Origin: an uncultured Rhodobacteraceae bacterium
Lineage (GTDB): Bacteria; Pseudomonadota; Alphaproteobacteria; Rhodobacterales; Rhodobacteraceae
Direction of reading: 5' to 3'
Assembly (NCBI GenBank): GCA_947499725.1
Contig: CANMPK010000004.1
Coordinates: 211,550 to 275,549 of the forward strand
DNA: 64,000 nucleotides
Positions 47,999 to 64,000 of this stretch are shown in pieces. The translations under genes and the position numbers were made by a program. A model generated the notes under the pieces. The model saw only the letters and a list, made by a program, of their open reading frames with translations. It made no database searches and was not told the origin of the DNA. Position 1 is the stretch's first letter; every line of letters starts with the position of its first letter.

Positions 47999-48275
47999 GT
48001 CAAGGTGACGTATGTAAATGATAACCATTTTGCGCGTTACAATCGATCGCTCGGCTGGAGAAAGCAGAGGGCAGCCTAGGAAGAGAAGCTTGCCGCTTCA
48101 CAATCCTGTACCAATTGCTGTTTCCGTATTCGTGGGTGCCACTGCTTAGGCAAAATTACAGAACAACAACAAACATCTCAGCGCCGGTGATCGTCGATAG
48201 GATGCACGCGGAAGTGTGAGAAGAAATCAGAGTTACACCAGATGGGCTGGTCGATTTTTAACTCATTGATTTAAA

Positions 48276-48322
48276 TGGAGGCGAGTACCGGAATCGAACC
48301 GGTGTACACGGATTTGCAATCC
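48276..48322 (-). repeat. 3' half of tRNA-Cys(GCA): att-site direct repeat, not an intact tRNA
   Basis: Minus strand reads GGATTGCAAATCCGTGTACACCGGTTCGATTCCGGTACTCGCCTCCA: anticodon loop with GCA, T-arm GGTTCGATT and 3' CCA. D-arm and 5' acceptor strand are absent. Confidence 0.88.
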
Positions 48323-48458
48323 AGAAAGAGGGGCAGCGAAAACAACGACTTAAGGGTACAAAACACACGCTGACAAAAATTGAACAAAAAGCGAAGGTTT
48401 CAACGTCATTGAACGACCTTTTTGTAGAAGGAGCCGCTCAGCCACATGGGGCGTTTCA

Positions 48459-48611
48459 ATGAGCTGGGTGGTTGCAAACGAATGCGCCGAGCGCCGCTTT
48501 GGCAGCGCCGCGCGCAAGCAGATCATCATGTTTCTGGCCGACAAGGCGAGCGATGACGGTTCGGGCATCTGGTGTTCCAAGGGGACGATCCAGCGCCACA
48601 CAGAGCTCAGC
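48459..48611 (+). pseudogene. N-terminal fragment of a mobile-element winged-HTH (replication-protein-like) gene
   Basis: MSWVVANECAERRFGSAARKQIIMFLADKASDDGSGIWCSKGTIQRHTELS, then the frame runs into the antisense strand of the desaturase. Confidence 0.6.
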
Positions 48612-49776
48612 GATGCTCATCCCAGAGGTGGAGGTGCGCACAGCGGAGGCTTTGCCGGAGCGTTATGCGTTTGGTCTGTGCCAGCATCTCGTGATCCTCG
48701 ATCACCTCGGGCAGGCGATAAAACGGAATTCGACTGGCCAAATGATGAACATGGTGAATACCGATATTGCCAGTGATCCAGCGTATAACGCTCGGAAGCT
48801 CGTAATGTGAGCTTCCGTAAAGTGCTGCTTCGTGGATGTTCCAATTTTCTTCGTGCTGCCAACTGGTTTCTTCGAACTGATGCTGGACATAGAAGAACCA
48901 CATGCCGGCGACTGCACCCAACAGCATGGTTGGCAGGAAGACGAACAGAACAACGTCCCAGCCGCCCAGCCATACGATCAAGGTCAGCGCCGAACCAATG
49001 GCGGCATTTGTTCCCATCGCGCTCAGCCAGTATCGCCAGCCCGACCGCATTAAGTGAACGGGCAGTCGGTTCTGCAAAAAGAACGTATAGAACGGCACCA
49101 CCCCGAACAGGAAAACTGGATTGCGGATAAGCCGATAGAGCGCCCGGCCGAGCCACCCCTTTTCTCGGTACTCCGTGACTGTGAGTGTCGGCATATCTCC
49201 GACACCCCGCCGGTCGAGGTTTCCGGTCGTGGCATGATGGATTGCGTGCGTTTTGCGCCAGACGTCATAGGGCGTCAGCGTGATCACGCCGATAACGCGA
49301 CCGATCCAGTCGCACAGGCGCCGACTGCGAAACAGGGACCCGTGACCGCAATCGTGCTGGATCATGAACAGTCGGACGAGGAACGCCGCATTCACCAGTG
49401 CCAGGGCCATTGCCAGCGCAGTACTGATCGAGAGCATCCACCAGGCGACCGCCCATATTGCCACGAACGGTGCCACTGTCACGGTCAGCTCGAAGATACT
49501 GCGCGAATGGATTGGCTGTCGGTATTTCGCCATCGCCCGCGACCAGTCTGACGGAGCCAAATTGGGCTCTTCCCGCATCAGATCAGTCTGACCGGCAGCA
49601 TTTCGCGTGCCCGGCTCCTTACCCGTAATGGACGAGGCCCGCGCTTGTACTTGAGGCTGCGGCGTGCTCAGAGGCTGAGCTTTGCGGACTCGGTTGGTGG
49701 TCTGATCCGGTATCTCTTCTCGATCTCGCCCTTGGCGACGACTGTTGGTTGAATAGGACGAAAGCTTTATCGGCAA
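48607..49776 (-). CDS. Membrane fatty acid desaturase (possibly clipped at the C-terminus; start uncertain, TTG 49776 or ATG 49578)
   Basis: Three His boxes (HDCGH, HAIHH, HHVHH) and TM segments. Confidence 0.85.
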   Translation of the reverse strand: MPIKLSSYSTNSRRQGRDREEIPDQTTNRVRKAQPLSTPQPQVQARASSITGKEPGTRNAAGQTDLMREEPNLAPSDWSRAMAKYRQPIHSRSIFELTVTVAPFVAIWAVAWWMLSISTALAMALALVNAAFLVRLFMIQHDCGHGSLFRSRRLCDWIGRVIGVITLTPYDVWRKTHAIHHATTGNLDRRGVGDMPTLTVTEYREKGWLGRALYRLIRNPVFLFGVVPFYTFFLQNRLPVHLMRSGWRYWLSAMGTNAAIGSALTLIVWLGGWDVVLFVFLPTMLLGAVAGMWFFYVQHQFEETSWQHEENWNIHEAALYGSSHYELPSVIRWITGNIGIHHVHHLASRIPFYRLPEVIEDHEMLAQTKRITLRQSLRCAHLHLWDEHR

Positions 49777-49800
49777 TAGAAATCCTGTGTGATTGAGCGT

Positions 49801-50043
49801 TTACACTTGCGGCCTCCGAACGGAGTTGCCACCAGCAATAATCTGGTTAATGAGTGCCGCAACAGATCGATGCGTTTCCATTTCGCCCTCCGATCCATTT
49901 GCGTTCTCATGGGTTGCTGCGGCGTCGCGAAGAACACATACGATCTCATGCTCCGGCAGCAGTCCGCTATCGTTCATGGCAAGCAGAAGTGCTTCGCAGA
50001 TTGAAAGGGCGGCCTGTCCTGAATGCTCGTTCGCCGTTGACAT
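49801..50043 (-). CDS. Hypothetical protein, 80 aa
   Basis: MSTANEHSGQAALSICEALLLAMND... Stops 24 nt before the desaturase ORF, so probably co-transcribed with it. Confidence 0.65.
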   Translation of the reverse strand: MSTANEHSGQAALSICEALLLAMNDSGLLPEHEIVCVLRDAAATHENANGSEGEMETHRSVAALINQIIAGGNSVRRPQV

Positions 50044-50192
50044 CTTGGAGGTTCCCTTCTTGTTTCGCGATCTAGGTTGAATTCGCGCCGGACCTATCCG
50101 TACTTTTCGCACGAAATGAGCTATGCTGGACTGATCGAGAGCAGTCGAAGAAACCATTTCCACGCGTCTGACGGACCTGTGAAGGAGAAGCT

Positions 50193-50927
50193 ATGACACC
50201 ATTCGTGACCAGCCCGCTCACCCGCAAGCTTTCGGCCTTTGTCGCTTTGTCAAAGGCGGAATTGGATGTGCTCGAGCGCCTACACCAGCGCCGTCGCTCC
50301 TTTGTCGCTGGGCGAGATATGGTGCATCAGGGGCAGTCGGATCAGGCTGCCTATATCCTGTCCGAAGGATGGGTTTGTTCCTACAAGTTCCAGCCTGACG
50401 GGACCCGGCAGATCGTCGATTTCCAGGTGCCAGGGGATTTTCTGGGGTTGCGGAGCGTCCTTTTGCGCACGTCGGACCACAGCTTCGAACCAATCGTCGA
50501 CATCGAGGCTGCGGAAGTGCTTAAGAGCGACCTTCTGAATGCATTCGCGCAGACCCCTCGCCTCGCAACCGCCATACTCTGGGCGGCGTCGCGGGACGAG
50601 GCGATGGTCGTGGAACATCTCGTCGGAATCGGTCGGCGTGATGCGGACGCCCGCATGGCGCATTTCCTGCTGGAGCTGGGATCGCGGCTTGCGCTGGTGG
50701 GCATGGGGACTGAGGATGGGTATGATTGCCCGCTGACCCAGTATCACCTGGCAGATGCCTTGGGACTTAGTGCGATTCACGTGAACCGCGTCCTGCGGCA
50801 GCTCCGTGAACGCGGGCTGGTCACGTTTCGCGGCGGTCGCGTTTCCTTTGAAGACCATCGCGTGCTGGTCGACCTTGCAGAGTTCGATCCGGAATACCTT
50901 GACCAAAATGGTCCACTGTTGAAATGA
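50193..50927 (+). CDS. Crp/Fnr-family transcriptional regulator (HVNR recognition-helix type)
   Basis: cNMP-binding-like domain (GTRQIVDFQVPGDFLG), RMAHFLLEL, and HTH LTQYHLADALGLSAIHVNRVL. GAAGGAG RBS. Confidence 0.92.
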   Translation: MTPFVTSPLTRKLSAFVALSKAELDVLERLHQRRRSFVAGRDMVHQGQSDQAAYILSEGWVCSYKFQPDGTRQIVDFQVPGDFLGLRSVLLRTSDHSFEPIVDIEAAEVLKSDLLNAFAQTPRLATAILWAASRDEAMVVEHLVGIGRRDADARMAHFLLELGSRLALVGMGTEDGYDCPLTQYHLADALGLSAIHVNRVLRQLRERGLVTFRGGRVSFEDHRVLVDLAEFDPEYLDQNGPLLK

Positions 50928-51025
50928 CCTGCGCCGCCCCGTTGATCGACGAGGCGACGTTCTCATTTTTGCCGTGCCTTTGCGCTCGCCTTTATCCGGC
51001 AGAGGTACTCGGAATGTGGATGGGC

Positions 51026-51301
51026 TCAGTCGTCTTCGTTGTCCGAATTGAGCGAATCTAGGCGCTGAAAGACGTTTGCGAGCGTGAGCGTGCCGCATTC
51101 GGTTGGCGACAGCTCAGCTGATTTCTCAAGTTTTGTGCAGGGGCGCACTATGTCCTCCGTTTGTGGTAGTGGAAGTGGTTGGGGGTAAAGGCTTTCCGCC
51201 TGTCCGGCAGCAGCCAAGGAGGCGAAGATCACAGCCGACCCGAAGCGTAGCTTCAGTCGGGCAATCCGGGCAGTCGAGAAAATTTTCGGATTAGAATTCA
51301 T
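51026..51301 (-). CDS. Small putative exported protein, 91 aa
   Basis: Basic N-terminus plus hydrophobic stretch ending AAAGQA, two Cys, AGGA RBS before ATG 51301. Confidence 0.5.
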   Translation of the reverse strand: MNSNPKIFSTARIARLKLRFGSAVIFASLAAAGQAESLYPQPLPLPQTEDIVRPCTKLEKSAELSPTECGTLTLANVFQRLDSLNSDNEDD

Positions 51302-51458
51302 TGGGTAGTCCTTTCCTAGGCACTTCGAGAATAAGAAGCGTGTCGACATGCCGTCCTTTGGAGATCGACACGCCACCCGCTTCTCGGGTACTCGGAAAAA
51401 TGCACCACCGAATGTTCGGCGGAACGTCTCACCTAAACGGAGTCGGCGCCCCGCCGCA

Positions 51459-51472
51459 CTGACGCAGGTTAG
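51459..51472 (-). promoter_or_regulatory. Crp/Fnr-like box 1 (CTAAC-ctgc-GTCAG on the minus strand)
   Basis: 5-4-5 dyad followed after 23 nt by TAGGTG on the minus strand, upstream of the 51301 gene. Confidence 0.6.
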
Positions 51473-51510
51473 CCCCGACGCTTGCGGCAGGACGGTTGCC
51501 CATGCGCTTC

Positions 51511-51924
51511 TCATTTCACCACAGTTTGCTGGTGGGAAATCCTCAGCCATTTGTCGTCATCGACAAGGTACGTTGACGCGCAGAGCGCCTTGTAGATCGG
51601 CACGTCGGTTTTTTCAGCCGAGACGCGATAGGTGAGAATGGCAATATCATGACACCGCGTCACGCGCCGTTCGGCCATGACAACGGTGCGCCAGCCTGTA
51701 TTTTCGCGAAGATGGGGCCAGATCTGGTCGCCCTGGAGGATGCCGGGCGGATAGGGGAAGACCATAACGGCGTTGGTTGCCGTGGTCGCCTGCGCACTGT
51801 CGGCGCCGCTGGTCCAGAACTGTTCCTCTATGCCCCAGAGTTTGCCCTGTTCGTGTGGAGAAAGCGTACCGGACTTGTGCGCTGCATGGTCCGGTCTCCT
51901 CGCGGTCGCGGTTGATACGGTCAT
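51511..51924 (-). CDS. NTF2-like / DUF4440-type protein
   Basis: Size and pattern AILTYRVSA...STY...KWLRISHQQT fit the SnoaL/NTF2 fold. ATGA overlap with the upstream gene. Confidence 0.6.
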   Translation of the reverse strand: MTVSTATARRPDHAAHKSGTLSPHEQGKLWGIEEQFWTSGADSAQATTATNAVMVFPYPPGILQGDQIWPHLRENTGWRTVVMAERRVTRCHDIAILTYRVSAEKTDVPIYKALCASTYLVDDDKWLRISHQQTVVK

Positions 51925-52346
51925 TCGCCTGACCCCGACCCGCCAACCATGAACATCTGAAACAGCAGAATGATAATCGTGAGCACTGTCCAGATCGCTC
52001 TGCTTTTGCCCGGGTGGCCGTCTGGGACGGTCGAAGCAGCTCGCTTCAGGCTACCTGACGTCCGGCCTTCGGGAAGCAGCTGGCTCAGGTCTCGTGCGAT
52101 CCTGCCGTGATCGCTGGCGAGCGCAGGTACGTCTTCAAATCGGGCAAGCAGCGTTCCCAAGCGTGCCTGCGCGGCGTCGTGCCCCAGCATGACCAGTTCA
52201 GCGGTTTCCTTCCATGGATCTAGGCCGAGCTGCGCGAGCGTGGAGAGCACGGTCACGGCATAGCCTTTCCGGTCCTCGCCGACGAACGCATAGAGAAACC
52301 GATCAAACTCCGGCGGGTGCGGGTTGAGAACATTGAGGTCGGCCAT
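51921..52346 (-). CDS. Hypothetical protein with C-terminal TM helix, 141 aa
   Basis: MADLNVLNPHPPEFDRFLYA... with AAGGA RBS, coupled to the DUF4440-type gene. Confidence 0.65.
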   Translation of the reverse strand: MADLNVLNPHPPEFDRFLYAFVGEDRKGYAVTVLSTLAQLGLDPWKETAELVMLGHDAAQARLGTLLARFEDVPALASDHGRIARDLSQLLPEGRTSGSLKRAASTVPDGHPGKSRAIWTVLTIIILLFQMFMVGGSGSGE

Positions 52347-52424
52347 TGCCAATCCTTTCAAGGGTTGCAGGAATGTAGATCATCCCTGTTTTCCAAAGTG
52401 TACGCGCAGGTCGGTTCCCGCGCC

Positions 52425-52438
52425 CTTACACAGGTCAG
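52425..52438 (-). promoter_or_regulatory. Crp/Fnr-like box 2 (CTGAC-ctgt-GTAAG on the minus strand)
   Basis: Followed after 22 nt by TACACT (52402-52397, minus strand), upstream of the 52346 gene. Confidence 0.7.
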
Positions 52439-52486
52439 TGCCCGCAAACCTCTCCAGGGAGTTCGCTACCCGCGCGGCGCCCGGGA

Positions 52487-52500
52487 CTAACATGTGTAAG
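52487..52500 (+). promoter_or_regulatory. Crp/Fnr-like box 3 (CTAAC-atgt-GTAAG)
   Basis: Followed after 22 nt by TACAAA (52523-52528), upstream of the 52619 gene. Confidence 0.65.
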
Positions 52501-52618
52501 CACCAGTCGAACGTTTCCGAAGTACAAAAGGAGAAATCGTTCGACTGGTCAGGTCCGGAATCCAAGGGGCCGTCAACAGTGGCGAGCGACGGATCTGCCA
52601 AAATCGTGGAGGCCAGAG

Positions 52619-52933
52619 ATGAGCTTGCGTTCATCCAGTTTGAGGGTGACTTTCCTGCACCCGTTCAGCCTAGCCGATTTTCCGGACGAACTTCCGGCTG
52701 GGGACTACGAAGTCCTGATTCAGGAACAACTTCTCCGCGGGCAAGGTTTCGAAACGTATCAGAGGACGGCAGCCCATATGACCGTTCCTGGCAGAGGGGA
52801 TCGGGCGGGTTGGATGGAACTGCACAGGATATCAGAGCGCGACCTGAATGAGGCGCTGAGCCGGGATCAGGGTCCGACTGAGATGAACAACCATAGCGAA
52901 GCGGCGCTTTCTCCGCAGGAGGACTTGCAATGA
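52619..52933 (+). CDS. Hypothetical protein, 104 aa (LPAGxYE motif)
   Basis: VTFLHPFSLADFPDELPAGDYEV. ATGA overlap with the next gene. Confidence 0.7.
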   Translation: MSLRSSSLRVTFLHPFSLADFPDELPAGDYEVLIQEQLLRGQGFETYQRTAAHMTVPGRGDRAGWMELHRISERDLNEALSRDQGPTEMNNHSEAALSPQEDLQ

Positions 52934-53274
52934 ATACTCCCGAATGGCTCAAACCCGGCATCTATGGTGCCGTGATCGGTGCTGTCTTTGTCGGCGTCGT
53001 CGGATTTTCATGGGGTGGCTGGGTGACCGGCGGCACTTCGAATGACCGCGCGCTGGCGATGTCTCGTAACGATGTCGTCGCCTCAATGGTACCAGTCTGC
53101 CTCGACATGGCGCGTTCAGACCCGGCTAGGGCGGACAAGCTTGCAACGATCCGGGCAGCCTCGACCTACCAGAGGCGCGACGCTCTCATGACAGCCGGCT
53201 GGGCGACGATGCCAGGAACTGACGCCCCAGACCGAGACATTGCTCAAGCCTGCCTCAAGGAACTGGAACTCTGA
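52930..53274 (+). CDS. Hypothetical membrane-anchored protein, 114 aa
   Basis: N-terminal TM helix (GAVIGAVFVGVVGFSWGGW), two Cys, GGAGG RBS. Confidence 0.75.
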   Translation: MNTPEWLKPGIYGAVIGAVFVGVVGFSWGGWVTGGTSNDRALAMSRNDVVASMVPVCLDMARSDPARADKLATIRAASTYQRRDALMTAGWATMPGTDAPDRDIAQACLKELEL

Positions 53275-53381
53275 GGTCGTGCAGTTCAGAGCCGATGATG
53301 TGATGGCGCAAAACGGGTCGCACCGTCAAACGCGTGAGCTAGGCATCGCACCGAGTGCCGAAACCGAGATAGGAGCTTGCA

Positions 53382-54449
53382 ATGCCTTCTGATGACAATG
53401 GACCGGAAGATCGCGGACCTTGGAAAAACAAGCAGACCCGCGGTCCCCCTGAGGTTGACGCAGTTCTCAGGCGGGGTCGGGATCGGCTGCACGGCATCCT
53501 GCCGGACGGTCTGCCACCGGTGAAGCGTCTTGCAATCGGGGCCGCCATTGCGCTTGCGGCATTTGGGGCGTGGTCCTCATATTATACGGTGCCGAGCGAC
53601 TCCGTTGCGATTGTCCAACGGTTCGGGAAGTACGCGGCCGAGGTCCCTCCGGGGCTGCACTTCAAGATCCCGTTCGGGATCGACGTGACCACGTTGGTCC
53701 CGGTCAAGCGCCAGCTGAAACAAGAGTTCGGGTTCACGACTCCGGGTGCCTCCGATCCCTATCAGAGCCCGACGGACGGTCGCCGCGAGACCGAGATGGT
53801 GACTGGCGATCTTAACGCCGCGCTCGTGGAGTGGGTGGTGCAGTACCGGATTTCCGAACCTCGGAAATTTCTGTTCGAGGTGCGTGAGCCGAGCGCGACC
53901 CTGCGATACGTCTCGGAGTCCGTCATGCGCGAAGTTGTGGGAGACCGCACAGTAGACGAGGTGATCACCGTCGGACGCCAGGAAATCGAAAGCGAAGCCC
54001 TGATGAAGATGCAGGCGCTCGCGACCAAATACGCGATGGGCATCAGCATCGATCAGGTACAGCTGAAGAACATCAATCCGCCCCAGCCGGTTCAGGCCTC
54101 GTTCAACGAGGTCAACCAGGCACAACAAGAGAAGGAGCGGATCATCAACGAGGCCCGCCGCGAATACAACCGCGTCATACCTCTGGCCGAAGGCGAAAAG
54201 GACCAGCGCATCCGCGAAGCCGACGGTTATCGCTTGAGGAGGATCAATGAAGCCGAGGGCGATGCGGCACGCTTCACGGCGCTCCTGACGGAATACCGTC
54301 TGGCGCCCGAAGTTACCCGGCGCCGGATCTACATCGAAACCCTGCAGGATGTTCTGCCGGGAATTGGCTCCAAGATCATTGTCGACGGGTCCACGGCAAG
54401 CATCCTGCCGCTTTTAAACCTGGATCGACAGACAGGAGATCAACCATGA
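53382..54449 (+). CDS. hflK: FtsH protease modulator HflK (SPFH domain)
   Basis: N-terminal GPW...PPEVD motif, TM helix, PPGLHFK, TGDLN and VQASFNEVNQA motifs. Confidence 0.85.
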   Translation: MPSDDNGPEDRGPWKNKQTRGPPEVDAVLRRGRDRLHGILPDGLPPVKRLAIGAAIALAAFGAWSSYYTVPSDSVAIVQRFGKYAAEVPPGLHFKIPFGIDVTTLVPVKRQLKQEFGFTTPGASDPYQSPTDGRRETEMVTGDLNAALVEWVVQYRISEPRKFLFEVREPSATLRYVSESVMREVVGDRTVDEVITVGRQEIESEALMKMQALATKYAMGISIDQVQLKNINPPQPVQASFNEVNQAQQEKERIINEARREYNRVIPLAEGEKDQRIREADGYRLRRINEAEGDAARFTALLTEYRLAPEVTRRRIYIETLQDVLPGIGSKIIVDGSTASILPLLNLDRQTGDQP

Positions 54450-55534
54450 AGACCCTTTCGCTTATTGCCTCGGGAATCGCGGTTGCCGGGGTCGTCGCTG
54501 TGTCATCCGCCGTCTACACGGTCGGCGAGGTCGAACAGGCCATCATCACCCAGTTCGGCAAGCCGGTCGGCGCGCCGATCACCGAGGCTGGTCTCAAGAT
54601 AAAACTCCCCTTCGTTCAGGAGGTTAACCGGATCGACAGCCGGGTTCTGGAGTGGGACGGCTCGCCATCGGACATGCCCACCAAAGACAAGCTCTATATC
54701 TCGGTCGATCTCTTCGCGCGCTGGAAGATCACCGATCCTCTGCAGTACTTTCTGCGCCTGCGCGACGAGCGCAGCGCCCAGTCGCGCCTCGATGATATCC
54801 TCGGCAGCGAGACGCGGAACGCCGTCGCCAAGCACGAACTCATCGAGATTGTGCGCACGACCAGGGGCCGGACACCGCTTCGGGACACGCTTCTGACTGA
54901 TCAGGAGCTTGCGCAGGACATTGGCGCACTGGTTCCCATCACGAAGGGGCGGGCGCTGGTCGAGCAGCAGATCTTCGAGGCGGCGGCGGAGAAGGTGCGC
55001 GTCTTCGGGATTGAGCTTCTCGACATTCGTTTCAAACGCATAAACTACAATGAGAGCGTGCGACCCAAGATCTATGACCGCATGATCTCGGAGCGCCGGC
55101 AGATCGCCGAAAGATTCCTGTCCGAAGGCAACGGTGAAGCGGCCCGTATTCAAGGCAACAGGGTGCGGGATCTGTACAAGATCCAGTCCGAAGCCTATCG
55201 CGCCGTCGAGGAAATCCGCGGTGCCGCCGATGCCGCAGCAGCGGCAATCTATGCGGGCGCTTACAATGTCGATGCCGTTTCGGTCGAATTCTACGATTTC
55301 ACCCGAACCATGCAGGCCTACGGCGACATGATCTCGGACGACACAACGCTTGTCCTGACGACGGACAGCGATCTGTTCCAGTTCCTGCGCGGCATGCAGG
55401 GCGAGGCAAATCCCTTCCTCGATCCCGGCAGTGACCCGGGCGACGGTGGCGTGGCGTCAACCGGCAGGGCCCGACCAGCGCAAGACCCCGCTACGCCAAT
55501 CTTGACACAGACGGAGGTCGAAGCAGGCCGGTAG
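54446..55534 (+). CDS. hflC: FtsH protease modulator HflC (SPFH domain)
   Basis: QAIITQFGKP, RWKITDPL, YDRMISERRQIA and FYDFTRTMQAY motifs. ATGA overlap with hflK. Confidence 0.88.
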   Translation: MKTLSLIASGIAVAGVVAVSSAVYTVGEVEQAIITQFGKPVGAPITEAGLKIKLPFVQEVNRIDSRVLEWDGSPSDMPTKDKLYISVDLFARWKITDPLQYFLRLRDERSAQSRLDDILGSETRNAVAKHELIEIVRTTRGRTPLRDTLLTDQELAQDIGALVPITKGRALVEQQIFEAAAEKVRVFGIELLDIRFKRINYNESVRPKIYDRMISERRQIAERFLSEGNGEAARIQGNRVRDLYKIQSEAYRAVEEIRGAADAAAAAIYAGAYNVDAVSVEFYDFTRTMQAYGDMISDDTTLVLTTDSDLFQFLRGMQGEANPFLDPGSDPGDGGVASTGRARPAQDPATPILTQTEVEAGR

Positions 55535-55662
55535 GTTCATGTTGGAAGGTTTCAAGCATGAATTGAGGGTATCAATTGGGAAGCACGTCAATGACATCTG
55601 GACCACCGAGGTCGGTTTCTGTCCGCTTCTGAGCAAGACACACCCACTTAAATTCCGTGCCC

Positions 55663-55676
55663 CTAACCTGGGTCAG
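55663..55676 (+). promoter_or_regulatory. Crp/Fnr-like box 4 (CTAAC-ctgg-GTCAG)
   Basis: Followed after 22 nt by TAGGTA (55699-55704), upstream of the 55805 gene. Confidence 0.65.
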
Positions 55677-55804
55677 CGCACGATTTACGCTTGGCTGTTA
55701 GGTAGATGGCAAGAGCTGGATCGCGATGAGGCGAGGGCCTGCCTGCACACGCTCGAGCACACGAGATCCAGCGTCACAGCATGCAGCGTGAAGGATGATA
55801 CGCC

Positions 55805-56284
55805 ATGACATCAGTGAAAAATCTTACCAAGACGGCCGCAGAGACAACCGATCTTGAACGTCGTGTACTGGCCCATGAACGGATCCTGCAAGCTCTGATC
55901 GCCTACATGGCCCGTACGGAGCCGCGGTTCATCGATCATTTGAGAGAACGGTTCGTGGAACCGATGAGATTGACCCGGCACGAACATGACCACCGCGAAA
56001 CCGACGACTACGCGGAAGAGTTCATTCGCGCCGTGATGCTCCTCGGAGAAGTGCGCGCGCCCAACGCGAAGGAGCCGGAGATGACCGAAAAACAACCTGA
56101 GCAACCGAAAAGCAGAGGAGAAAAGGGGTCTTTCATGGACCGGCCAACGCAGCGCGATTGGGTTCAGGTAAACGAAAGAAACGGCATCTGGGAGGTTAAG
56201 GTAGATGGTAAGTTCCGCGGCGACTACCACGAGAAGGAGCATGCCCTTGCGGCTGCGGCCTTGCACAAATTGTCGCCCCGATGA
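55805..56284 (+). CDS. Hypothetical protein, 159 aa
   Basis: GAAGGA RBS, ATGA overlap with the next ORF. Confidence 0.7.
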   Translation: MTSVKNLTKTAAETTDLERRVLAHERILQALIAYMARTEPRFIDHLRERFVEPMRLTRHEHDHRETDDYAEEFIRAVMLLGEVRAPNAKEPEMTEKQPEQPKSRGEKGSFMDRPTQRDWVQVNERNGIWEVKVDGKFRGDYHEKEHALAAAALHKLSPR

Positions 56285-57261
56285 CCGTTAGTACTCATCC
56301 GACAGTCCCACAGGACTTCTCGATCCAGGTGGCCGAGAACGAAGGCATGCCATCGATATCGAACTCCAGGGGCTCCCCGCCAATGCCCGCTCGACGGTTG
56401 ACCGGAACGCTGACGCTAGGGCTATCGAAGACCCGCGCGGCAACCCGCGGACTCTGGTCCGCCAAGGAACAAGTTGCGATGAAACATCCCTTGACGAGGC
56501 TGATCGCGAGGACGGCAGCCATAGCCGGTGTGACCGCCTCTTTCGCCTTTCCCGTGCTTGCGCAGGATGGAACCGGCCCAATGCCGGAGAACGCCCAGCC
56601 GCGCAGCTATGGCGGCGGATGGGTCTGCGATCTAGGTTTCCGTGTGGAGGGCGCCGAATGCCTGCCTCTCGATATCCCTGAGCATGCCTATCCAACCGGG
56701 CGCTCCTACGGGACGGGGTGGGAGTGCGACCGAGGGTACGAGGAGGTGGACGGGACGTCGTGCAATCCCATCCCGGTCCCCGCCAATGCCTTCCTCCGGT
56801 CTTCCGGCTACGATTGGCAATGCGAACGCGGGTTCCGGCAGGAGGACGAGGCATGCGTGCCCATCGTTCTTCCCGAGCGTGCCTACCTGACAGAAGATAA
56901 CTCGGGGACGGGATGGACCTGTGATCGTGGCTATGAAGCTGTTGCAGGGACATGTTTGCCGTTTGCTATGCCAGCGAACGCGTATCTGACCAACGCAAAC
57001 TATGGAGACGCCTGGGATTGCGAGCGAGGCTTCGTCAAGATCGACGACCGATGCGACGCCGTTGTCGTGCCATCGCATGCCTATCTGGACGAGGCATCCT
57101 TTGGACCGGGCTGGAGCTGCGAGCGCGGATACGAGCCGCTGAATGGCGCCTGCGTCGCCATCGATCTGCCAGAGAACGCCTATCTCGACCGATCCGGCAA
57201 CCGGTGGAGCTGCAATCGAGGCTTCCGGCTCTCGGACGGGATGTGCATCCTTGGACGGTGA
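56281..57261 (+). CDS. Secreted cysteine-rich repeat protein (7 two-Cys repeats); likely secreted start ATG 56479
   Basis: Signal peptide MKHPLTRLIARTAAIAGVTASFAFPVLA after AAGGA, then 7 repeats of P-x-x-A-[YFQ]-x(5-7)-W-x-C-x-x-G-[FY]-x(6-7)-C. Confidence 0.8.
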   Translation: MTVSTHPTVPQDFSIQVAENEGMPSISNSRGSPPMPARRLTGTLTLGLSKTRAATRGLWSAKEQVAMKHPLTRLIARTAAIAGVTASFAFPVLAQDGTGPMPENAQPRSYGGGWVCDLGFRVEGAECLPLDIPEHAYPTGRSYGTGWECDRGYEEVDGTSCNPIPVPANAFLRSSGYDWQCERGFRQEDEACVPIVLPERAYLTEDNSGTGWTCDRGYEAVAGTCLPFAMPANAYLTNANYGDAWDCERGFVKIDDRCDAVVVPSHAYLDEASFGPGWSCERGYEPLNGACVAIDLPENAYLDRSGNRWSCNRGFRLSDGMCILGR

Positions 57262-57292
57262 TGCGGATGTTTCTCGTCGTGGCAGGTCCGGC

Positions 57293-58099
57293 ATGCGCGT
57301 CCGCATCGGGTGCCGTCTGCGATACAGCTTCCCGCAGCCGACGCCGCTGATTGCGATGCTGAACGTCCACTACTCGCGCTTTGGCGATCTGGAGCGTGCC
57401 GATTACCTCGTGACGTCGCCAAGCGTGCCGCTCGAAAGCTACCGCGACGGCTTCGGCAACTGGTGTACGCGCCTCCTGGCTCCGGCGGGTGACTTCGCGC
57501 TGTCAACGGATGGCATCTTCCGCGACTATGGTCGACCCGATCCCGCGTCCCCTGGCGCGCAGCAGCACGCGGTCCAGGATCTGCCTTTCGAGACCCTCGT
57601 GTTTCTTCGGGGCAGCCGGTATTGCGATACCGATCTTCTTTCGGAGGAGGCGTGGCGTCTTTTCGAGACCACGGACCCGGGATGGTCACGCGTTCAGGCG
57701 ATCTGCGATTTCGTGCATGGGCATGTCTGCTTCGACTACATGCAGGCGAAAGCGACGCGCACCGCATCGCAGTCAATGGCCGAGCGACAGGGCGTCTGCC
57801 GTGATTTTGCTCACCTCGCCATCGCCTTGTGCCGCTGCATGAATATTCCGGCACGCTACTGCACCGGATATCTGAGCGACATCGGTGAATCTCTGCCTCA
57901 TCCGCCCGAGGACTTTGCGGCGTGGATGGAGGTCTTTCTCGCTGGTGAATGGCACATGTTCGACCCGCGGAACAACAAGCCTAAGTTTGCGAGAATTCTG
58001 ATCGCGCGGGGCCGCGATGCCGCTGACGTCCCGCTGACCCAGACATTTGGTCAGAACACGCTGACGGAGTTCAAGGTTTGGACTGATAATCTGGTGTGA
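57293..58099 (+). CDS. Transglutaminase-like family protein
   Basis: Catalytic GVCRDFAHLAIALCR, PARYCTGYL and FDPRNN motifs. Start MRVRIG at 57293. Confidence 0.88.
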   Translation: MRVRIGCRLRYSFPQPTPLIAMLNVHYSRFGDLERADYLVTSPSVPLESYRDGFGNWCTRLLAPAGDFALSTDGIFRDYGRPDPASPGAQQHAVQDLPFETLVFLRGSRYCDTDLLSEEAWRLFETTDPGWSRVQAICDFVHGHVCFDYMQAKATRTASQSMAERQGVCRDFAHLAIALCRCMNIPARYCTGYLSDIGESLPHPPEDFAAWMEVFLAGEWHMFDPRNNKPKFARILIARGRDAADVPLTQTFGQNTLTEFKVWTDNLV

Positions 58100-58227
58100 T
58101 CTTTGTCTTCTTGGCGGCGCGCCATCGTAAATCGGGTCGCCAGCCCCCATATAGGTGGTACCGATGCTAGGCATCCCGGTCCGACATGGACGAGGAGTTG
58201 GCACCGGCCAATCAAAGGATCGATGAT

Positions 58228-58356
58228 ATGTCCTTCAAGGACCTGACCGCCAGGGCTGCGGCCGCAATGAAGCTGAAGCCTGCGAAAACCCCTGCCAAAG
58301 AGAACGAGTCCAAGGCCGTTGGCAAGGAAGCACCAGCGAAATCCAAGACATCTTGA
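58228..58356 (+). CDS. 42-aa Lys/Ala-rich small protein (below the ORF-track cutoff)
   Basis: MSFKDLTARAAAAMKLKPAKTPAKENESKAVGKEAPAKSKTS with AAAGGA RBS 8 nt upstream. Confidence 0.6.
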   Translation: MSFKDLTARAAAAMKLKPAKTPAKENESKAVGKEAPAKSKTS

Positions 58357-58432
58357 GACTTGCACCGGCCACGCGCCCCATTCTCAACGGGCGCGCGGAC
58401 CACCCACAGCAACAAGGGAAAGGTCCATTCTA

Positions 58433-58966
58433 ATGGAAGAATTGACGAGCAAGACCATTGCGGTTTTTTCCCGCCCGTTCACCGATCCGGGCTTCAACGA
58501 GATGCTTCCGGCGGGAGAGTACGAGATCGAAACGGAATTGGTTTCTACCCCGGATCAACAGGATCCCGCAGCCTGGAAAGCCTCAGTCCTGGTTAAACTT
58601 CATCCCCGGACATCGCATCCGGGGCTTACACGGTCTCTGACCGTTTCCCTTGCCGATCTAGACTATGCCCGCGCCAGGGACAAGCTGACAGGCAGAGCGT
58701 TGTCCGACTTCTTCCTTGAGGAAATGCTGGCTGATCCGATGGTGCGCCTCGTGATGGAGGCCGACGGGGTCTCTGCAGCACATATGCGGCATCTTTATTC
58801 GGAGCACCGAACACTCCAGTCTGACAGGGATGTCCTGGACCAGAACCCGGCGCGGCAAGGCTCACATGACATGGCGTCAATCCATGCTGCTGAAAACGAG
58901 GGCGTGCCTCCACGACCGACAGGGACATCGGATATGCCCACGGAAGTCAACACGGATTTGACATGA
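58433..58966 (+). CDS. Hypothetical protein, 177 aa (LPAGxYE, DPMVRLVMEADGV and AENEG motifs)
   Basis: Start ATG 58433 after GAAAGG. ATGA overlap with the next gene. Confidence 0.7.
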   Translation: MEELTSKTIAVFSRPFTDPGFNEMLPAGEYEIETELVSTPDQQDPAAWKASVLVKLHPRTSHPGLTRSLTVSLADLDYARARDKLTGRALSDFFLEEMLADPMVRLVMEADGVSAAHMRHLYSEHRTLQSDRDVLDQNPARQGSHDMASIHAAENEGVPPRPTGTSDMPTEVNTDLT

Positions 58967-59178
58967 TCAGGAACAAAACTTCGGTCGACGTAACATTTTC
59001 GGACATCGCCTGCGGAGGGGTCTTTGGCGACGTACCACGAGAGCGTCCTTGTCTGAGATGCGATGCTGTTTTCTGGAGTGAAGGCTTTGGAGAACGGATC
59101 TGTCGTCGCTGTAAGGGTTTGAGCGCCTGGCGGAACGCCGTTCCCGTCAGCCCTGGTGGTGCATTTCGTCGCCGCTGA
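58963..59178 (+). CDS. Small CxxC-x13-CxxC zinc-ribbon-like protein, 71 aa
   Basis: RPCLRCDAVFWSEGFGERICRRCK. Confidence 0.7.
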   Translation: MIRNKTSVDVTFSDIACGGVFGDVPRERPCLRCDAVFWSEGFGERICRRCKGLSAWRNAVPVSPGGAFRRR

Positions 59179-59408
59179 TCCCCACAGGGCGCGGCGTTGT
59201 CCCAGTACCGTATTGGACCCGTCATTCGGCCTGTCTTGACTTCGCTCGCATCACGCCGACCGGTGTCTTATGGAGCGAAGAGGGCTTGGAACTTCGCTAC
59301 CGTCACAGGAAACGCAGTCGGCTCTATCACAAGGGCAGCTCCGTGATTCGCCTGCGTCCAAGAAACCCAATCAAGAATAGCTGAAGGCCTCTGCCACAGC
59401 CAACTCCT

Positions 59409-59594
59409 TTGCAGGAAGGCGAAGTCGTATCCGTCGGTGCCGACGCAAAAGACAATGCCGGCGTGCGTATCGCAATGGTCGCCAAAGCTGGCGACAAAAT
59501 TCTGTTCGGCAATTGGTCGGGCACGGAAATCAAGATCTGCAGTGAAGAGCTGGAGATAATGAAGGAGAGTGACATCTTTGGCATTAGGGCCTGA
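59409..59594 (+). pseudogene. groS: 5'-truncated co-chaperonin groES
   Basis: QEGEVVSVG...[14 protein letters not shown]...[10 protein letters not shown] matches the GroES C-terminal part. The PLHDRV start and mobile loop are not found in the upstream frames, and there is no RBS. Confidence 0.75.
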
Positions 59595-59604
59595 CCGACG
59601 CTGA

Positions 59605-61272
<1,668 letters not shown>

Positions 61273-61433
61273 AAGCGAACTTTTGCGCGCGGCATTGGAA
61301 CCAATCTTTATGAGCCACGAGCAGTATTTTCCTTAAGACGGCTCGCACCAACGTCCCGACTTTTTCCAGTCGCTCTGCCCCCTGAGTAGACCATGTCGGA
61401 AGGCTCCGCTTTCTGTCATTAAATCGCTCCATG

Positions 61434-61447
61434 CTGATCTGTGTAAG
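61434..61447 (+). promoter_or_regulatory. Crp/Fnr-like box 5 (CTGAT-ctgt-GTAAG)
   Basis: Followed after 22 nt by TAGCTA (61470-61475), upstream of the 61610 gene. Confidence 0.6.
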
Positions 61448-61609
61448 CGTCGAAAACTGGAATGTAAGCTAGCTAGAAAATGCCCGCTGAAAATTCAGCA
61501 GGGCATGTGTTTTCGAGTTTTTAAGCGGCGCGCAAGTGGCGGTTCCCTAAAAGGAATTTCTTCTTTCGCGCTCCGCTCTTTCTCGAAGTGCCCAGGAAAG
61601 GACACCACA

Positions 61610-61798
61610 ATGAAACTCAACACCAATACCATCTCGGAAAAGATGAAGTCCGTTAAAGCCAGCTGTGGAGGCGCACCCTTCGGTGAAAAAAGAACGCAGG
61701 CTTGGAGACATTACAACGCTGCTGAGGCCGCGCACAAAGCGAATGACGACATCAAGACGAAATACGAACTCGACGCTGCCAGGAAAGCCCTTGCGTAA
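61610..61798 (+). CDS. Small helical protein, 62 aa
   Basis: MKLNTNTISEKMKSVKASCGGAPFGEKRTQAWRHYNAAE... with GAAAGGA RBS. Confidence 0.65.
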   Translation: MKLNTNTISEKMKSVKASCGGAPFGEKRTQAWRHYNAAEAAHKANDDIKTKYELDAARKALA

Positions 61799-61909
61799 TT
61801 AATAACGCCCGCGTGAAGACCCGGGCCAGTTTGAGCAAATGCAGAATGCAATACGCCGTGACTTGAACCGCAATCCATGATGGATTGCCCTACCTTGATT
61901 GGAAAAACC

Positions 61910-62158
61910 GTGAAAAATGTAACTCTCGTAGCTGCCCTTGTGACATCCGTCGCATTCTCTGCCAACGCAATGTCTGCCGAAATTGATACTGACGGCGACG
62001 GCATGGCATCCCTCGCTGAACTTCAGGTCTCATATCCTGAACTTACCGAGGAAGTGTTCGGCGACATCGACACAAATAGTGATGGACTTGTCGACGACGA
62101 GGAAATGGCTATCGCCGTTGAGCTTGGCAACCTCGCGGATCCTGAAACCGACTCCTGA
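61910..62158 (+). CDS. Secreted EF-hand (Ca-binding) protein
   Basis: Signal peptide ending SANA, EF loops DTDGDGMASLAE and DTNSDGLVDDEE, GTG start. Confidence 0.8.
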   Translation: MKNVTLVAALVTSVAFSANAMSAEIDTDGDGMASLAELQVSYPELTEEVFGDIDTNSDGLVDDEEMAIAVELGNLADPETDS

Positions 62159-62181
62159 AACCAAAGGTTGGAGTATGCGCT

Positions 62182-62561
62182 ATGCAAAATCGTGAAGTTT
62201 TCAGATGGAGCTTCACAGCTTCACAGCTTCACAGCTTCACAGCTTCAGGGCTTTGGCTCATCTTGTCGCCGTTCATGCTTTTTGGCGGCCAATCGGCTCT
62301 TGGCAATGCCCTCGTTGGCGATGCAGGACTGCTCATTCTCTCGGGTTTTTGGCTTTGACCGTAGCGGATTACGGCCACAACAAGCATTACCTGGTCCAGA
62401 CCTATCTAGGAGTTTCCTACGGTTTGATTTTGGTAGCGGCTCCTTGGCTGTTCGGATTCACCGAACCTGTGACCGCCTGGAATGCCGGCTTCGTCGGAAC
62501 GGCTTTGGTTCTGGCGGGCCTTTATGTGGTGTTTCAGAAAATGCCGAAACATCACGCATAG
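62182..62561 (+). pseudogene. Frameshifted SPW-repeat membrane protein gene
   Basis: Frame 1 (ATG 62182) reads ...GLWLILSPFMLFGG...stop 62358. Frame 2 continues GFLALTV...GLILVAAPWLFGF...stop 62561. The shift lies near 62338-62343. Confidence 0.65.
62209..62247 (+). repeat. Tandem repeat (AGCTTCAC) x 4.9
   Basis: Four exact 8-mers plus 7/8 of a fifth, inside the 5' end of the SPW gene. Confidence 0.95.
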
Positions 62562-62571
62562 TGAAGACACT

Positions 62572-62596
62572 GTGTGGGGCGGAAAACGCCCCACAC
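62572..62596 (+). terminator. Hairpin after the SPW gene, probable terminator
   Basis: GTGTGGGGCG-GAAAA-CGCCCCACAC followed by TTCT (weak U-tract). Confidence 0.55.
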
Positions 62597-63237
62597 TTCT
62601 AGTCGTTGTCCTTGCCAATACTACTCACCCTGCATCTCTTCCGAATATGGCTATTAGGTATTGACCGCGACTCGAACGCTTCGCGACTTTGGGGGAGTGG
62701 ACAGACCGTCCGTCTGAATCAAGGTCGTAGCCACTTCAACTGTGCAACTTGTGTGCAATCCAATTTGAAGGTCCGGAAGGCGCACGAAAGCAGCCTCTTC
62801 CGCAAGCGCAACGAACTCACCCTTTGTCCGCAGACTGTGAATTTGCTAAATCTCAGAATTTGCAGTTGCAGCAAAGGTCTCTTCTGGCGGGCCGCACTGC
62901 GGCATTGGGGCTAATACAAAAATGCCCTCGGTAAAATCAAACAAGCCGATGGCAAAAGAGTGAGTTTTTACACAACCTCGGCCACTAGACTCCGCCAGAC
63001 CCCGAAAAAGAAATTTGGACGAACGCTAACTTCGATCAGCGCCAGCCTGGCATCCGCGCCTTATGGTCTCGCAAGACGTTACGCTTTGCCACTGCACCAG
63101 GAATGCCCAGGGCCAAACAGGGCATATGTCGATCATCAAGGTTCAAACCAGGCCTTGGCTGCAAGGCGTCGACGGTCCGTTAGACGATTAACGAGTATTT
63201 CTAATGACCGAATTTTCTTAGAAAAAGGACGAACCCC

Positions 63238-64000
63238 ATGCGCTATACGATCAAGTCGAGACTTCTTGCAGGAACAACATTAATCGCAGCCGGCTTCCTG
63301 TCCAATGCGGTCGTCGCACAAGAGGTGACGATTGCGTTTCCCGCCGATGAGCTGGGGGCCACATCCTATAATCCGGTGACGTCGAACAACTTAAACTCCG
63401 CCGCGTCCTTGATCTATGACCGGTTGATCGAGCAGGACGCGGACCAGTCCTATCATCCCCATCTGGCCACATCTTGGGAAGAAAGCACGGACGGTATGTC
63501 TTGGACGTTCCACCTCAAGGACGGCGTGACCTTTCACGACGGATCACCGTTCAACGCACAATCGGTTGCCGATTGGATACCGGACTTTGCGGATACAGAG
63601 AACGCCTATTTGGTGGCCGCGGTCGCCTCTGTTGAAGTGATCGACAACCTGACCGTCAAGTTCGTGATGTCACGCCCCGAACCGAGCCTGCTGTACAACC
63701 TGGCCTCGACTTTTATGGGTGTTCCTGGCGCCGCCGCATTTGACTCGATGGGCGACGACTTTGGCGTGTCGGGTGCGGTCGGGACTGGACCATTTAAACT
63801 GGACAGTTTCGCCATCGGGTTAGAGACGGTTCTGGTGCGCAATGACGACTATGCTTGGGCCTCAGATCTGTCCGAGAATCAGGGGCGCGCGCATATCGGG
63901 AAGATCACATTCCGTGAGGTTCCGGACCAGTCCACTGCATTTCTTGAATTGAAAACAGGCGGCATCGACTTGCTGTTGGGTGTCCCGACGCCATTCCTTG
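63238..64000 (+). CDS. ABC transporter peptide/nickel-type (family 5) substrate-binding protein, partial (runs off right edge)
   Basis: MRYTIKSRLLAGTTLIAAGFLSNAVVAQE signal peptide, then LATSWEES.DG.SWTFHLKDGVTFHDGSPFNA and GTGPFKL motifs. AAAGGA RBS. Confidence 0.88.
   Translation, partial: MRYTIKSRLLAGTTLIAAGFLSNAVVAQEVTIAFPADELGATSYNPVTSNNLNSAASLIYDRLIEQDADQSYHPHLATSWEESTDGMSWTFHLKDGVTFHDGSPFNAQSVADWIPDFADTENAYLVAAVASVEVIDNLTVKFVMSRPEPSLLYNLASTFMGVPGAAAFDSMGDDFGVSGAVGTGPFKLDSFAIGLETVLVRNDDYAWASDLSENQGRAHIGKITFREVPDQSTAFLELKTGGIDLLLGVPTPFL

Follow-up and report, generated by a model that had tools for sequence, protein, structure and literature searches.

Gene content and layout of the cluster

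Here we describe a gene cluster of an uncultured Rhodobacteraceae bacterium, built around a regulator of the Crp/Fnr superfamily and located in a 64,000-nt window (the whole stretch of DNA that was analyzed; C4:211550-275549) of a 3.15 Mb genome. An earlier note on this window had described the block of genes starting at 49801 as one module of about 20 genes. Genes were called from Pfam and NCBIfam scans together with open reading frame (ORF) listing and translation, and the scans bore out the Crp/Fnr regulator, hflKC, Cys-repeat, transglutaminase-like, and EF-hand genes given in that note. The block is a conserved, apparently unstudied gene cluster, the right-hand end of which is decaying in this genome; no description of a cluster of such composition was found in the literature, in agreement with the note. 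The regulator and the genes arranged around it are listed below (dN/dS, ratio of nonsynonymous to synonymous substitution rates).

49801..50043, − strand: g02, 80 amino acids, no known family; divergent from the regulator and found with it in 77 of 82 loci; dN/dS 0.13
50193..50927, + strand: FixK-like Crp/Fnr regulator (crp), 244 amino acids, recognition helix SAIHVNRVLRQL (Pfam/NCBIfam)
51026..51301, − strand: g04, 91 amino acids, secreted; stands where most other loci have the g19-like gene
51511..51924, − strand: g05, 137 amino acids, NTF2-like fold (structure model and Foldseek)
51921..52346, − strand: g06, 141 amino acids, C-terminal membrane helix (sequence inspection)
52619..52933, + strand: g07, 104 amino acids, LPAG-domain protein (structure model)
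52930..53274, + strand: g08, 114 amino acids, N-terminal membrane helix (sequence inspection)
53382..55534, + strand: hflK-hflC paralogue pair (HflK 53382-54449, HflC 54446-55534), inserted in the g07 operon
55805..56284, + strand: g11, 159 amino acids, no known family (dN/dS, family scans)
56281..57261, + strand: g12, Cys-repeat protein with an AENEGMP N-terminal tail, a membrane/signal segment, and seven two-cysteine repeats
57293..58099, + strand: g13, transglutaminase-like protein (PF01841, Transglut_core), no signal peptide
58228..58356, + strand: g14, 42 amino acids, lysine- and alanine-rich
58433..58966, + strand: g15, 177 amino acids, N-terminal LPAG domain, C-terminal AENEGMP
58963..59178, + strand: g16, 71 amino acids, cysteine-rich
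61610..61798, + strand: g19, 62 amino acids, no known family

The small ORFs display dN/dS values of 0.10-0.34 (0.08 for the regulator), indicative of purifying selection, and are therefore regarded as genuine genes. Against the roughly 13 small ORFs previously proposed, about 11 small genes of no known family are supported in this way, and several listed ORFs proved spurious, with the raw list including such cases at 50924-51061, 51348-51635, 55539-55808, and 62168-62602. The suggested coupling of genes by ATGA overlaps is genuine at five junctions (g06/g05, g07/g08, hflK/hflC, g11/g12, and g15/g16).

A shared operator box

A common promoter box had also been proposed for the block. Searching for the pattern CTRAC-N4-GTMAG (palindrome CTAAC-N4-GTCAG), the window scan returned five copies in the block:

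51459..51472, − strand: Box 1, CTAACCTGCGTCAG, 31.7 bits against the position weight matrix (PWM) described below
52425..52438, − strand: Box 2, CTGACCTGTGTAAG, serving g06-g05
52487..52500, + strand: Box 3, CTAACATGTGTAAG, serving g07-g08-hflKC
55663..55676, + strand: Box 4, CTAACCTGGGTCAG, in the hflC-g11 spacer
61434..61447, + strand: Box 5, CTGATCTGTGTAAG, PWM 19.5 bits

In homologous loci (1.32 Mb), the pattern occurs 161 times versus 15.5 in shuffles (~10-fold enriched), in support of the proposed box, while the whole genome holds 29 occurrences, 4 of them within the block. None lies inside a module gene. Oriented boxes are instead found at fixed distances upstream of g07 (61 copies), the g19-like gene (57), g06 (53), g11 (10), and g15 (8), and promoter alignments showed the box to be the best-conserved intergenic element, followed in every group by a TAnnnT hexamer that starts exactly 22 nt after it. 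Given this spacing, the box centre falls at −41.5 of the predicted start, the position of class II activation, upstream of three to five neighbouring operons.

A PWM was then built from 95 distinct sites of other genomes, with the window left out. When the genome was scanned with this matrix, the five boxes of the block were the top five sites (31.7 to 19.5 bits), with the next site at 18.9 bits, and the regulon therefore appears confined to the cluster, i.e., self-contained. Beyond the island, the highest-scoring box-like sequence is ACCGCTGACTTGGGTCAGGGCG (G000:C2:283149, − strand, 18.9 bits). The canonical FNR box, TTGAT-N4-ATCAA, is absent from the block, where a single match with one mismatch was noted within hflK; its five matches across the window are near chance. 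Scans for sigma-70 promoters and terminators likewise gave counts at chance level.

The Crp/Fnr-type regulator

The regulator carries both cNMP_binding and HTH_Crp_2 domains (PF00027, 7.5e-12; PF13545, 1.1e-14), as expected of the Crp/Fnr superfamily, and its nearest solved relative is FixK2 (PDB 4I2O, E 1e-18). In the alignment of the two recognition helices, SAIHVNRVLRQL of the regulator is paired with LTLETVSRALSQL of FixK2, so that IH.NR stands in the place of E..SR, the DNA-contacting motif of FixK2. The altered recognition helix fits the different half-site of the box.

Neither of the better-known subgroups accommodates the protein. The E..SR motif of the FixK subgroup is missing, as is an FNR/FixK box in the block, and the score against NF050806 (58 bits) compares with a 300-bit cut-off. 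Members of the FNR subgroup possess an N-terminal cysteine cluster holding a [4Fe-4S] centre, and only two cysteines (residues 62 and 179), neither near the N-terminus, are found here; the score against NF008365 was 64.9 bits (cut-off 228 bits). With FixK2 of Bradyrhizobium and the FNR-type regulators, both of which govern TTGAT-N4-ATCAA regulons, the regulator shares the two-domain fold family and a 14-bp 5-4-5 palindrome centred at −41.5, and like FixK it is without the FNR iron-sulfur cysteine cluster. In contrast to both, it has the IH.NR helix, a CTAAC rather than a TTGAT half-site, and a regulon confined to its own mobile cluster, and no FixLJ-type input is evident. Binding of cyclic AMP was considered and dropped, as E72 and R82 of CRP align with Leu and His here (by-eye alignment to E. 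coli CRP).

The region between the regulator and g02 was also inspected:

50044..50192, no strand: g02/crp intergenic region, with conserved palindromes and no CTAAC box

The palindromes, GACTG-N8-CAGTC and TTTCG-CA-CGAAA, are unrelated to the box and may be an operator for an upstream input.

Distribution and synteny

By megablast, plasmid pRIdsm_03 (Roseovarius indicus) matches the 49.9-58.8 kb region at 85% DNA identity, and pP97_c (Phaeobacter porticola) does so at 80%. A genome-collection scan found at least 451 relatives of the regulator, the best 80 of which are all 80-93% identical to it and nearly all from Rhodobacterales. In an even sample of this order, the regulator was present in 101 of 401 genomes and 67 of 138 genera, with two to four copies in some genomes, and 19 plasmids in PLSDB carry it. 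The distribution is patchy, with both same-genus relatives lacking the regulator (0 of 2).

Gene presence and order were determined by tblastn of every block protein against 82 loci, many of which end at contig ends, so that the presence counts are lower bounds. The gene-neighbourhood check proposed in the earlier note came out in its favour, with the same gene order kept in more than 60 loci from dozens of genera. On the left, the canonical layout comprises either groEL and groES or a desaturase, followed by g02 (all on the − strand), the regulator (+), and the g19-like gene, g05, and g06 (−); on the right, it continues with g07, g08, hflK and hflC where present, and g11 to g16 (all +), and a second transglutaminase. 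Besides g02, the core includes g05, g06, g07, g08, and the g19-like gene, each present in 54-59 of the 82 loci. The variable parts are hflKC (17 loci), the desaturase (21), groESL (30), nhaA (14), and DUF1611 with a racemase (6), with the desaturase and groESL taking turns at one position in the gene-order strings. The core thus numbers about 12 genes, to which hflKC, the desaturase, and groESL have been added in some loci only.

hflKC and its accompanying box

The hflKC paralogues score above the HflK/HflC equivalog cut-offs (TIGR01933, 265 bits, cut-off 159; TIGR01932, 232 bits, cut-off 134) and are 31-32% identical to the housekeeping pair, which the genome retains. A box precedes g11 in 7 of 8 loci with hflKC versus 0 of 22 where g11 directly follows g08. 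As the box before g11 tracks hflKC, the pair has evidently been built into the operon with downstream control preserved. The FtsH genes of this genome are confined to contigs C1 and C6, with none in the island. With the chromosomal HflKC-FtsH complex for membrane quality control, the cluster has in common a pair of overlapping genes scoring above the equivalog cut-offs, but differs in the low identity of the paralogues (31-32%), their mobility, their placement within a Crp/Fnr-type operon, and the lack of a cognate FtsH in the island, due to which the HflKC paralogue would act on host FtsH.

A structured leader RNA

The g19-like gene is separated from the box promoter by a leader of about 130 nt, the fold of which comprises one hairpin at the 5′ end and a second, long one. 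The window holds two copies of this leader:

51290..51427, − strand: structured 5′ leader RNA, copy 1, preceding g04
61478..61621, + strand: structured 5′ leader RNA, copy 2, preceding g19

Their folding energies are −53 and −52 kcal/mol (z-scores −4.1 and −3.4, respectively). A covariance model recovered 67 leader copies in the 81 sources searched. Compensatory changes were noted in 22 of 27 pairs, and 93% of cells pair versus 38-59% with the partners slid, figures that lean in the model's favour given the alignment was fitted to it. No relevant match was found in Rfam over 48000-64000 (E<=1). A U-rich tract able to pair with the ribosome-binding site (Shine-Dalgarno) suggests a translational switch.

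Small proteins and other products

The 11 small proteins are under purifying selection and without family annotation; comparison with Pfam, NCBIfam, PDB sequences, and PADLOC yielded nothing usable. When ten proteins of the cluster were submitted to PADLOC, the sole match was to CARF3, non-significant (E 0.005) and in the helix-turn-helix region of the regulator. Sequence inspection indicated membrane segments in g06, g08, and g12 and signal peptides in g04 and the EF-hand protein. The g05 model (predicted local distance difference test, pLDDT, of 76) matched 3ke7 and 2r4i in Foldseek with a probability of 1.0 and template modelling (TM) scores of 0.6-0.7.

The LPAGxYE motif, noted twice from sequence alone, belongs to a homologous domain of about 85 amino acids, shared by g07 and the N-terminal half of g15 (hhalign 97.9%, E 5e-13). 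In g07 it is modelled as a beta-sheet with a helix (pLDDT 80), for which a fold search in PDB gave nothing better than E 0.08. In a set of 1.84 billion proteins, this LPAG family forms 1,846 clusters (50% identity), and it has no Pfam entry; its members are mostly stand-alone proteins of 85-130 amino acids. The homologues of g15 fall into 693 clusters, all labelled 'hypothetical'. The second recurring motif of the earlier note, AENEG, was similarly upheld, as AENEGMP is kept at the N-terminus of g12 in 13 of 30 sequences and at the C-terminus of g15 in 30 of 38. A longer form, [SPA]I[QR]xAENEGMP, is found at 56320-56355 (cytoplasmic tail of g12) and 58880-58915 (g15), flanking the transglutaminase-like gene, and may be a processing or docking site.

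Neighbouring stress genes and decay of the right-hand end

The remaining genes lie at the two ends of the block, and in part concern the controlling inverted repeat of chaperone expression (CIRCE):

48607..49776, − strand: fatty-acid desaturase (Pfam/NCBIfam), with a likely start giving 323 amino acids (48607-49578); downstream of g02, no box
59409..59594, + strand: groES remnant, the 3′ 61 codons, no start codon; deletion junction at about 59411-59420
59638..61272, + strand: groEL paralogue, sharing 76% identity with housekeeping groEL; native CIRCE promoter lost
61877..62158, + strand: EF-hand protein, secreted (Pfam/NCBIfam)
62182..62561, + strand: SPW-like membrane protein gene, frameshifted (orthologue comparison)

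Three genes named in the earlier note thus required correction. The desaturase is present, but just left of the claimed start at 49801. GroEL is encoded as stated, whereas groES survives only as the 61-codon 3′ fragment. A deletion of about 320 bp (59263-59420 region) between CGCAGGAA direct repeats removed the 5′ end of groES and the CIRCE promoter region; the CIRCE (TTGGCACTC-N9-GAGTGCCAA) is intact in relatives L010, L013, and L002, and the groES start is also in the deleted stretch (L010, L013). The arrangement of a groESL operon, an intact groES upstream of groEL, is therefore not found here, while the genome retains a housekeeping groESL and two other desaturases. Finally, the SPW gene is there but carries a 24-nt tandem duplication (FTASQLHS repeat) and a frameshift relative to intact 117-amino-acid orthologues in L008, L010, L013, and L061; the lesion may mark a pseudogene or stem from a mistake in the assembly.

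As a separate CIRCE element accompanies groESL in relatives, we have placed groESL outside the regulon. Both groESL and the desaturase, which belongs to the box-less g02 operon, are neighbours of the regulon and not members. The idea of one unit of about 20 genes consequently did not hold, with groESL CIRCE-controlled in relatives and broken here, the desaturase/g02 operon box-less, and the add-ons variable.

The mobile element setting

The GC content of the block is 58-61%, compared to 53-56% in the large contigs. Two features mark the left edge of the element in which it sits:

48270..48322, − strand: attL, a 53-bp repeat of the 3′ half of tRNA-Cys (repeat search)
48448..48604, + strand: 5′ remnant of a 289-amino-acid element gene, 85% identical to the intact copy that opens the neighbouring integrative and conjugative element (ICE)

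The 53-bp repeat is found in three identical copies, at 48270-48322 and at window-equivalent positions 70630-70682 and 118999-119051. The third is inside an intact tRNA-Cys outside the window (a tRNA scan of the window gave zero genes), and the copy at 70630-70682 is internal to the array. These repeats flank the block and the neighbouring ICE, in line with the earlier designation of the block as island-borne. Besides the block, the left unit (22.3 kb) encodes a peptide ABC transporter and an M81/MlrC peptidase. Neither an integrase nor any transfer gene was found among its Pfam/NCBIfam domains, and it opens with a 157-bp remnant of the first gene of the ICE. The right unit (48.3 kb) encodes a relaxase, a coupling protein, VirB4, a reverse transcriptase, and a tyrosine integrase adjoining the tRNA; given the relaxase, coupling protein, VirB4, and integrase next to the tRNA, we identified it as an ICE with type IV secretion.

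Based on the att repeats, the missing integrase and transfer genes, and the 157-bp remnant, we placed the block in a unit resembling a cis-mobilizable element (CIME), in tandem accretion with the ICE. The block sits in a CIME-like element beside a tRNA-Cys ICE: the att repeats are identical to those of the ICE, the first element is cargo only, and it is the second that encodes the integrase, relaxase, coupling protein, and VirB4. The CIME concept was reportedly developed in Firmicutes, and in the present case mobilisation by the adjoining ICE is putative. As in described cases of CIMEs and tandem accretion (reviewed in PMC5704250; catalogued in ICEberg 2.0, PMC6323972), the unit is flanked by att sites, has no integrase or transfer genes, and has an att core in common with the adjoining ICE. 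An empty-site comparison, in which the left flank was searched in two same-genus genomes, gave zero matches. The part of the ICE outside the window encodes an AAA_13 ATPase, an SbcCD-like pair (Metallophos and AAA_27), and a reverse transcriptase (L004:13603-19997, L005:12911-14476), which may be defence cargo.

Interpretation

We consider the cluster to be, probably, a self-contained, mobile Crp/Fnr-type regulon with an envelope-associated output, which has recruited hflKC paralogues and carries other stress cargo alongside. Of this, the island structure and the synteny have been observed, together with a recognition helix that departs from that of FixK2 and a box that is conserved along with its spacing. 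The regulator would bind the box and activate transcription in response to a triggering signal, and the output would remodel the envelope or membrane-protein quality control. The operons with a box encode small proteins of no known family, mostly membrane-anchored or secreted, including a tail-anchored protein with its NTF2-like partner and the LPAG-domain proteins, along with a periplasmic protein with Cys repeats and a putative cysteine protease of the transglutaminase-like type, and one small gene is placed behind the structured leader RNA. The insertion of hflKC came with a new box, such that the downstream genes stay under the same control. Other stress cargo is carried on the box-less divergent g02 operon, i.e., the desaturase here and, in relatives, CIRCE-controlled groESL with or without nhaA.

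Several observations weigh against this interpretation. The g02/crp, desaturase, and groES promoters have no box, which leaves part of the supposed 20-gene module outside the regulon, and a factor other than the regulator could bind the box. Two genes, groES and SPW, are broken in this genome. The stress-response or dormancy function put forward in the earlier note is putative, and an envelope-stress role is suggested by predicted localisation and the named neighbours, with none of the 11 small proteins functionally assigned. In addition, hflKC, the desaturase, and groESL each occur in only 17-30 of the 82 loci.

A functionless mosaic would account for this variability. Here, the conserved core (the regulator and the ORFs of no known family) would be a landing pad on which hflKC, desaturase, groESL, nhaA, transglutaminase, EF-hand, and SPW cassettes are selected or decay independently. 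The presence of cargo genes in only 5-37 of 82 loci agrees with such a scheme, as do the separate CIRCE of groESL in relatives, the alternation of the desaturase and groESL at one position, and the broken groES and SPW genes. However, the order and orientation of the cargo are fixed across genera, a compensating box accompanies the hflKC insertion, and the cargo theme is narrow (membrane and proteostasis only). We regard a mosaic of this kind as unlikely.

It is more doubtful still that the core regulon works on behalf of the mobile element (for example, in its establishment, in exclusion, or in the control of transfer), with HflKC modulating FtsH turnover of element regulators and not the stress tolerance of the host. 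While the cluster is found on many contigs and plasmids with a patchy spread, adjoins virB genes on pRIdsm_03 and pP97_c, and has no strong host targets in the PWM scan, it is located here not in the ICE but in an element without integrase or type IV secretion system. Moreover, the other 80 loci have, within 10 kb, no match to the VirB4 of this ICE or of pRIdsm_03 or to the coupling protein or relaxase of this ICE, and the cluster proteins contain no conjugation-type domains. An anti-phage defence or abortive infection system built on SPFH and transglutaminase-like proteins is scarcely credible, since mobile carriage and many small unannotated proteins are set against a lone non-significant PADLOC match among ten proteins, the absence of a nuclease, ATPase, or NTPase effector, and an envelope- and chaperone-related composition.

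Beyond the mobile Crp/Fnr-type regulon as such, we tentatively raise the possibility of a transferable, self-regulated envelope-adaptation pathway made almost wholly of undescribed parts, namely a new Crp/Fnr operator specificity, a translational or thermal switch in the leader RNA, and about 11 new protein families. In such a pathway, the transglutaminase-like protease may process AENEGMP-tagged membrane proteins and HflKC may re-tune host FtsH, by which temperature or salinity tolerance might be gained.

Implications

The marker genes of the enterobacterial locus of heat resistance (tLST) encode ClpK, small heat-shock proteins, YfdX, HdeD, KefB, and DegP. These markers are missing from the Pfam/NCBIfam results for the block, which also has no FtsH, so that the two are unrelated in composition. 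The cluster further differs in its host clade and in having its own Crp/Fnr regulator. The likeness to the tLST (PMC8290217) is in concept only, that of a horizontally transferred island bundling extra proteostasis and envelope genes. To this extent, the cluster is a candidate marine alphaproteobacterial counterpart of enterobacterial stress-tolerance islands.

The Rhodobacterales (roseobacter group) play a major part in the cycling of carbon and sulfur in the sea, and plasmids and ICEs pass freely among them. The cluster, which about a quarter of the sampled marine Rhodobacterales species carry, comes with a dedicated regulator as well as an operator and a leader RNA that are both new. Given its eleven conserved proteins without a Pfam/NCBIfam family, it represents a large unstudied item in the roseobacter mobile gene pool. 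The regulator provides a test case for the re-specification of DNA binding by Crp/Fnr recognition helices, and the cluster is directly testable in carrier strains kept in culture collections, such as Roseovarius indicus DSM 26383 and Phaeobacter porticola P97.

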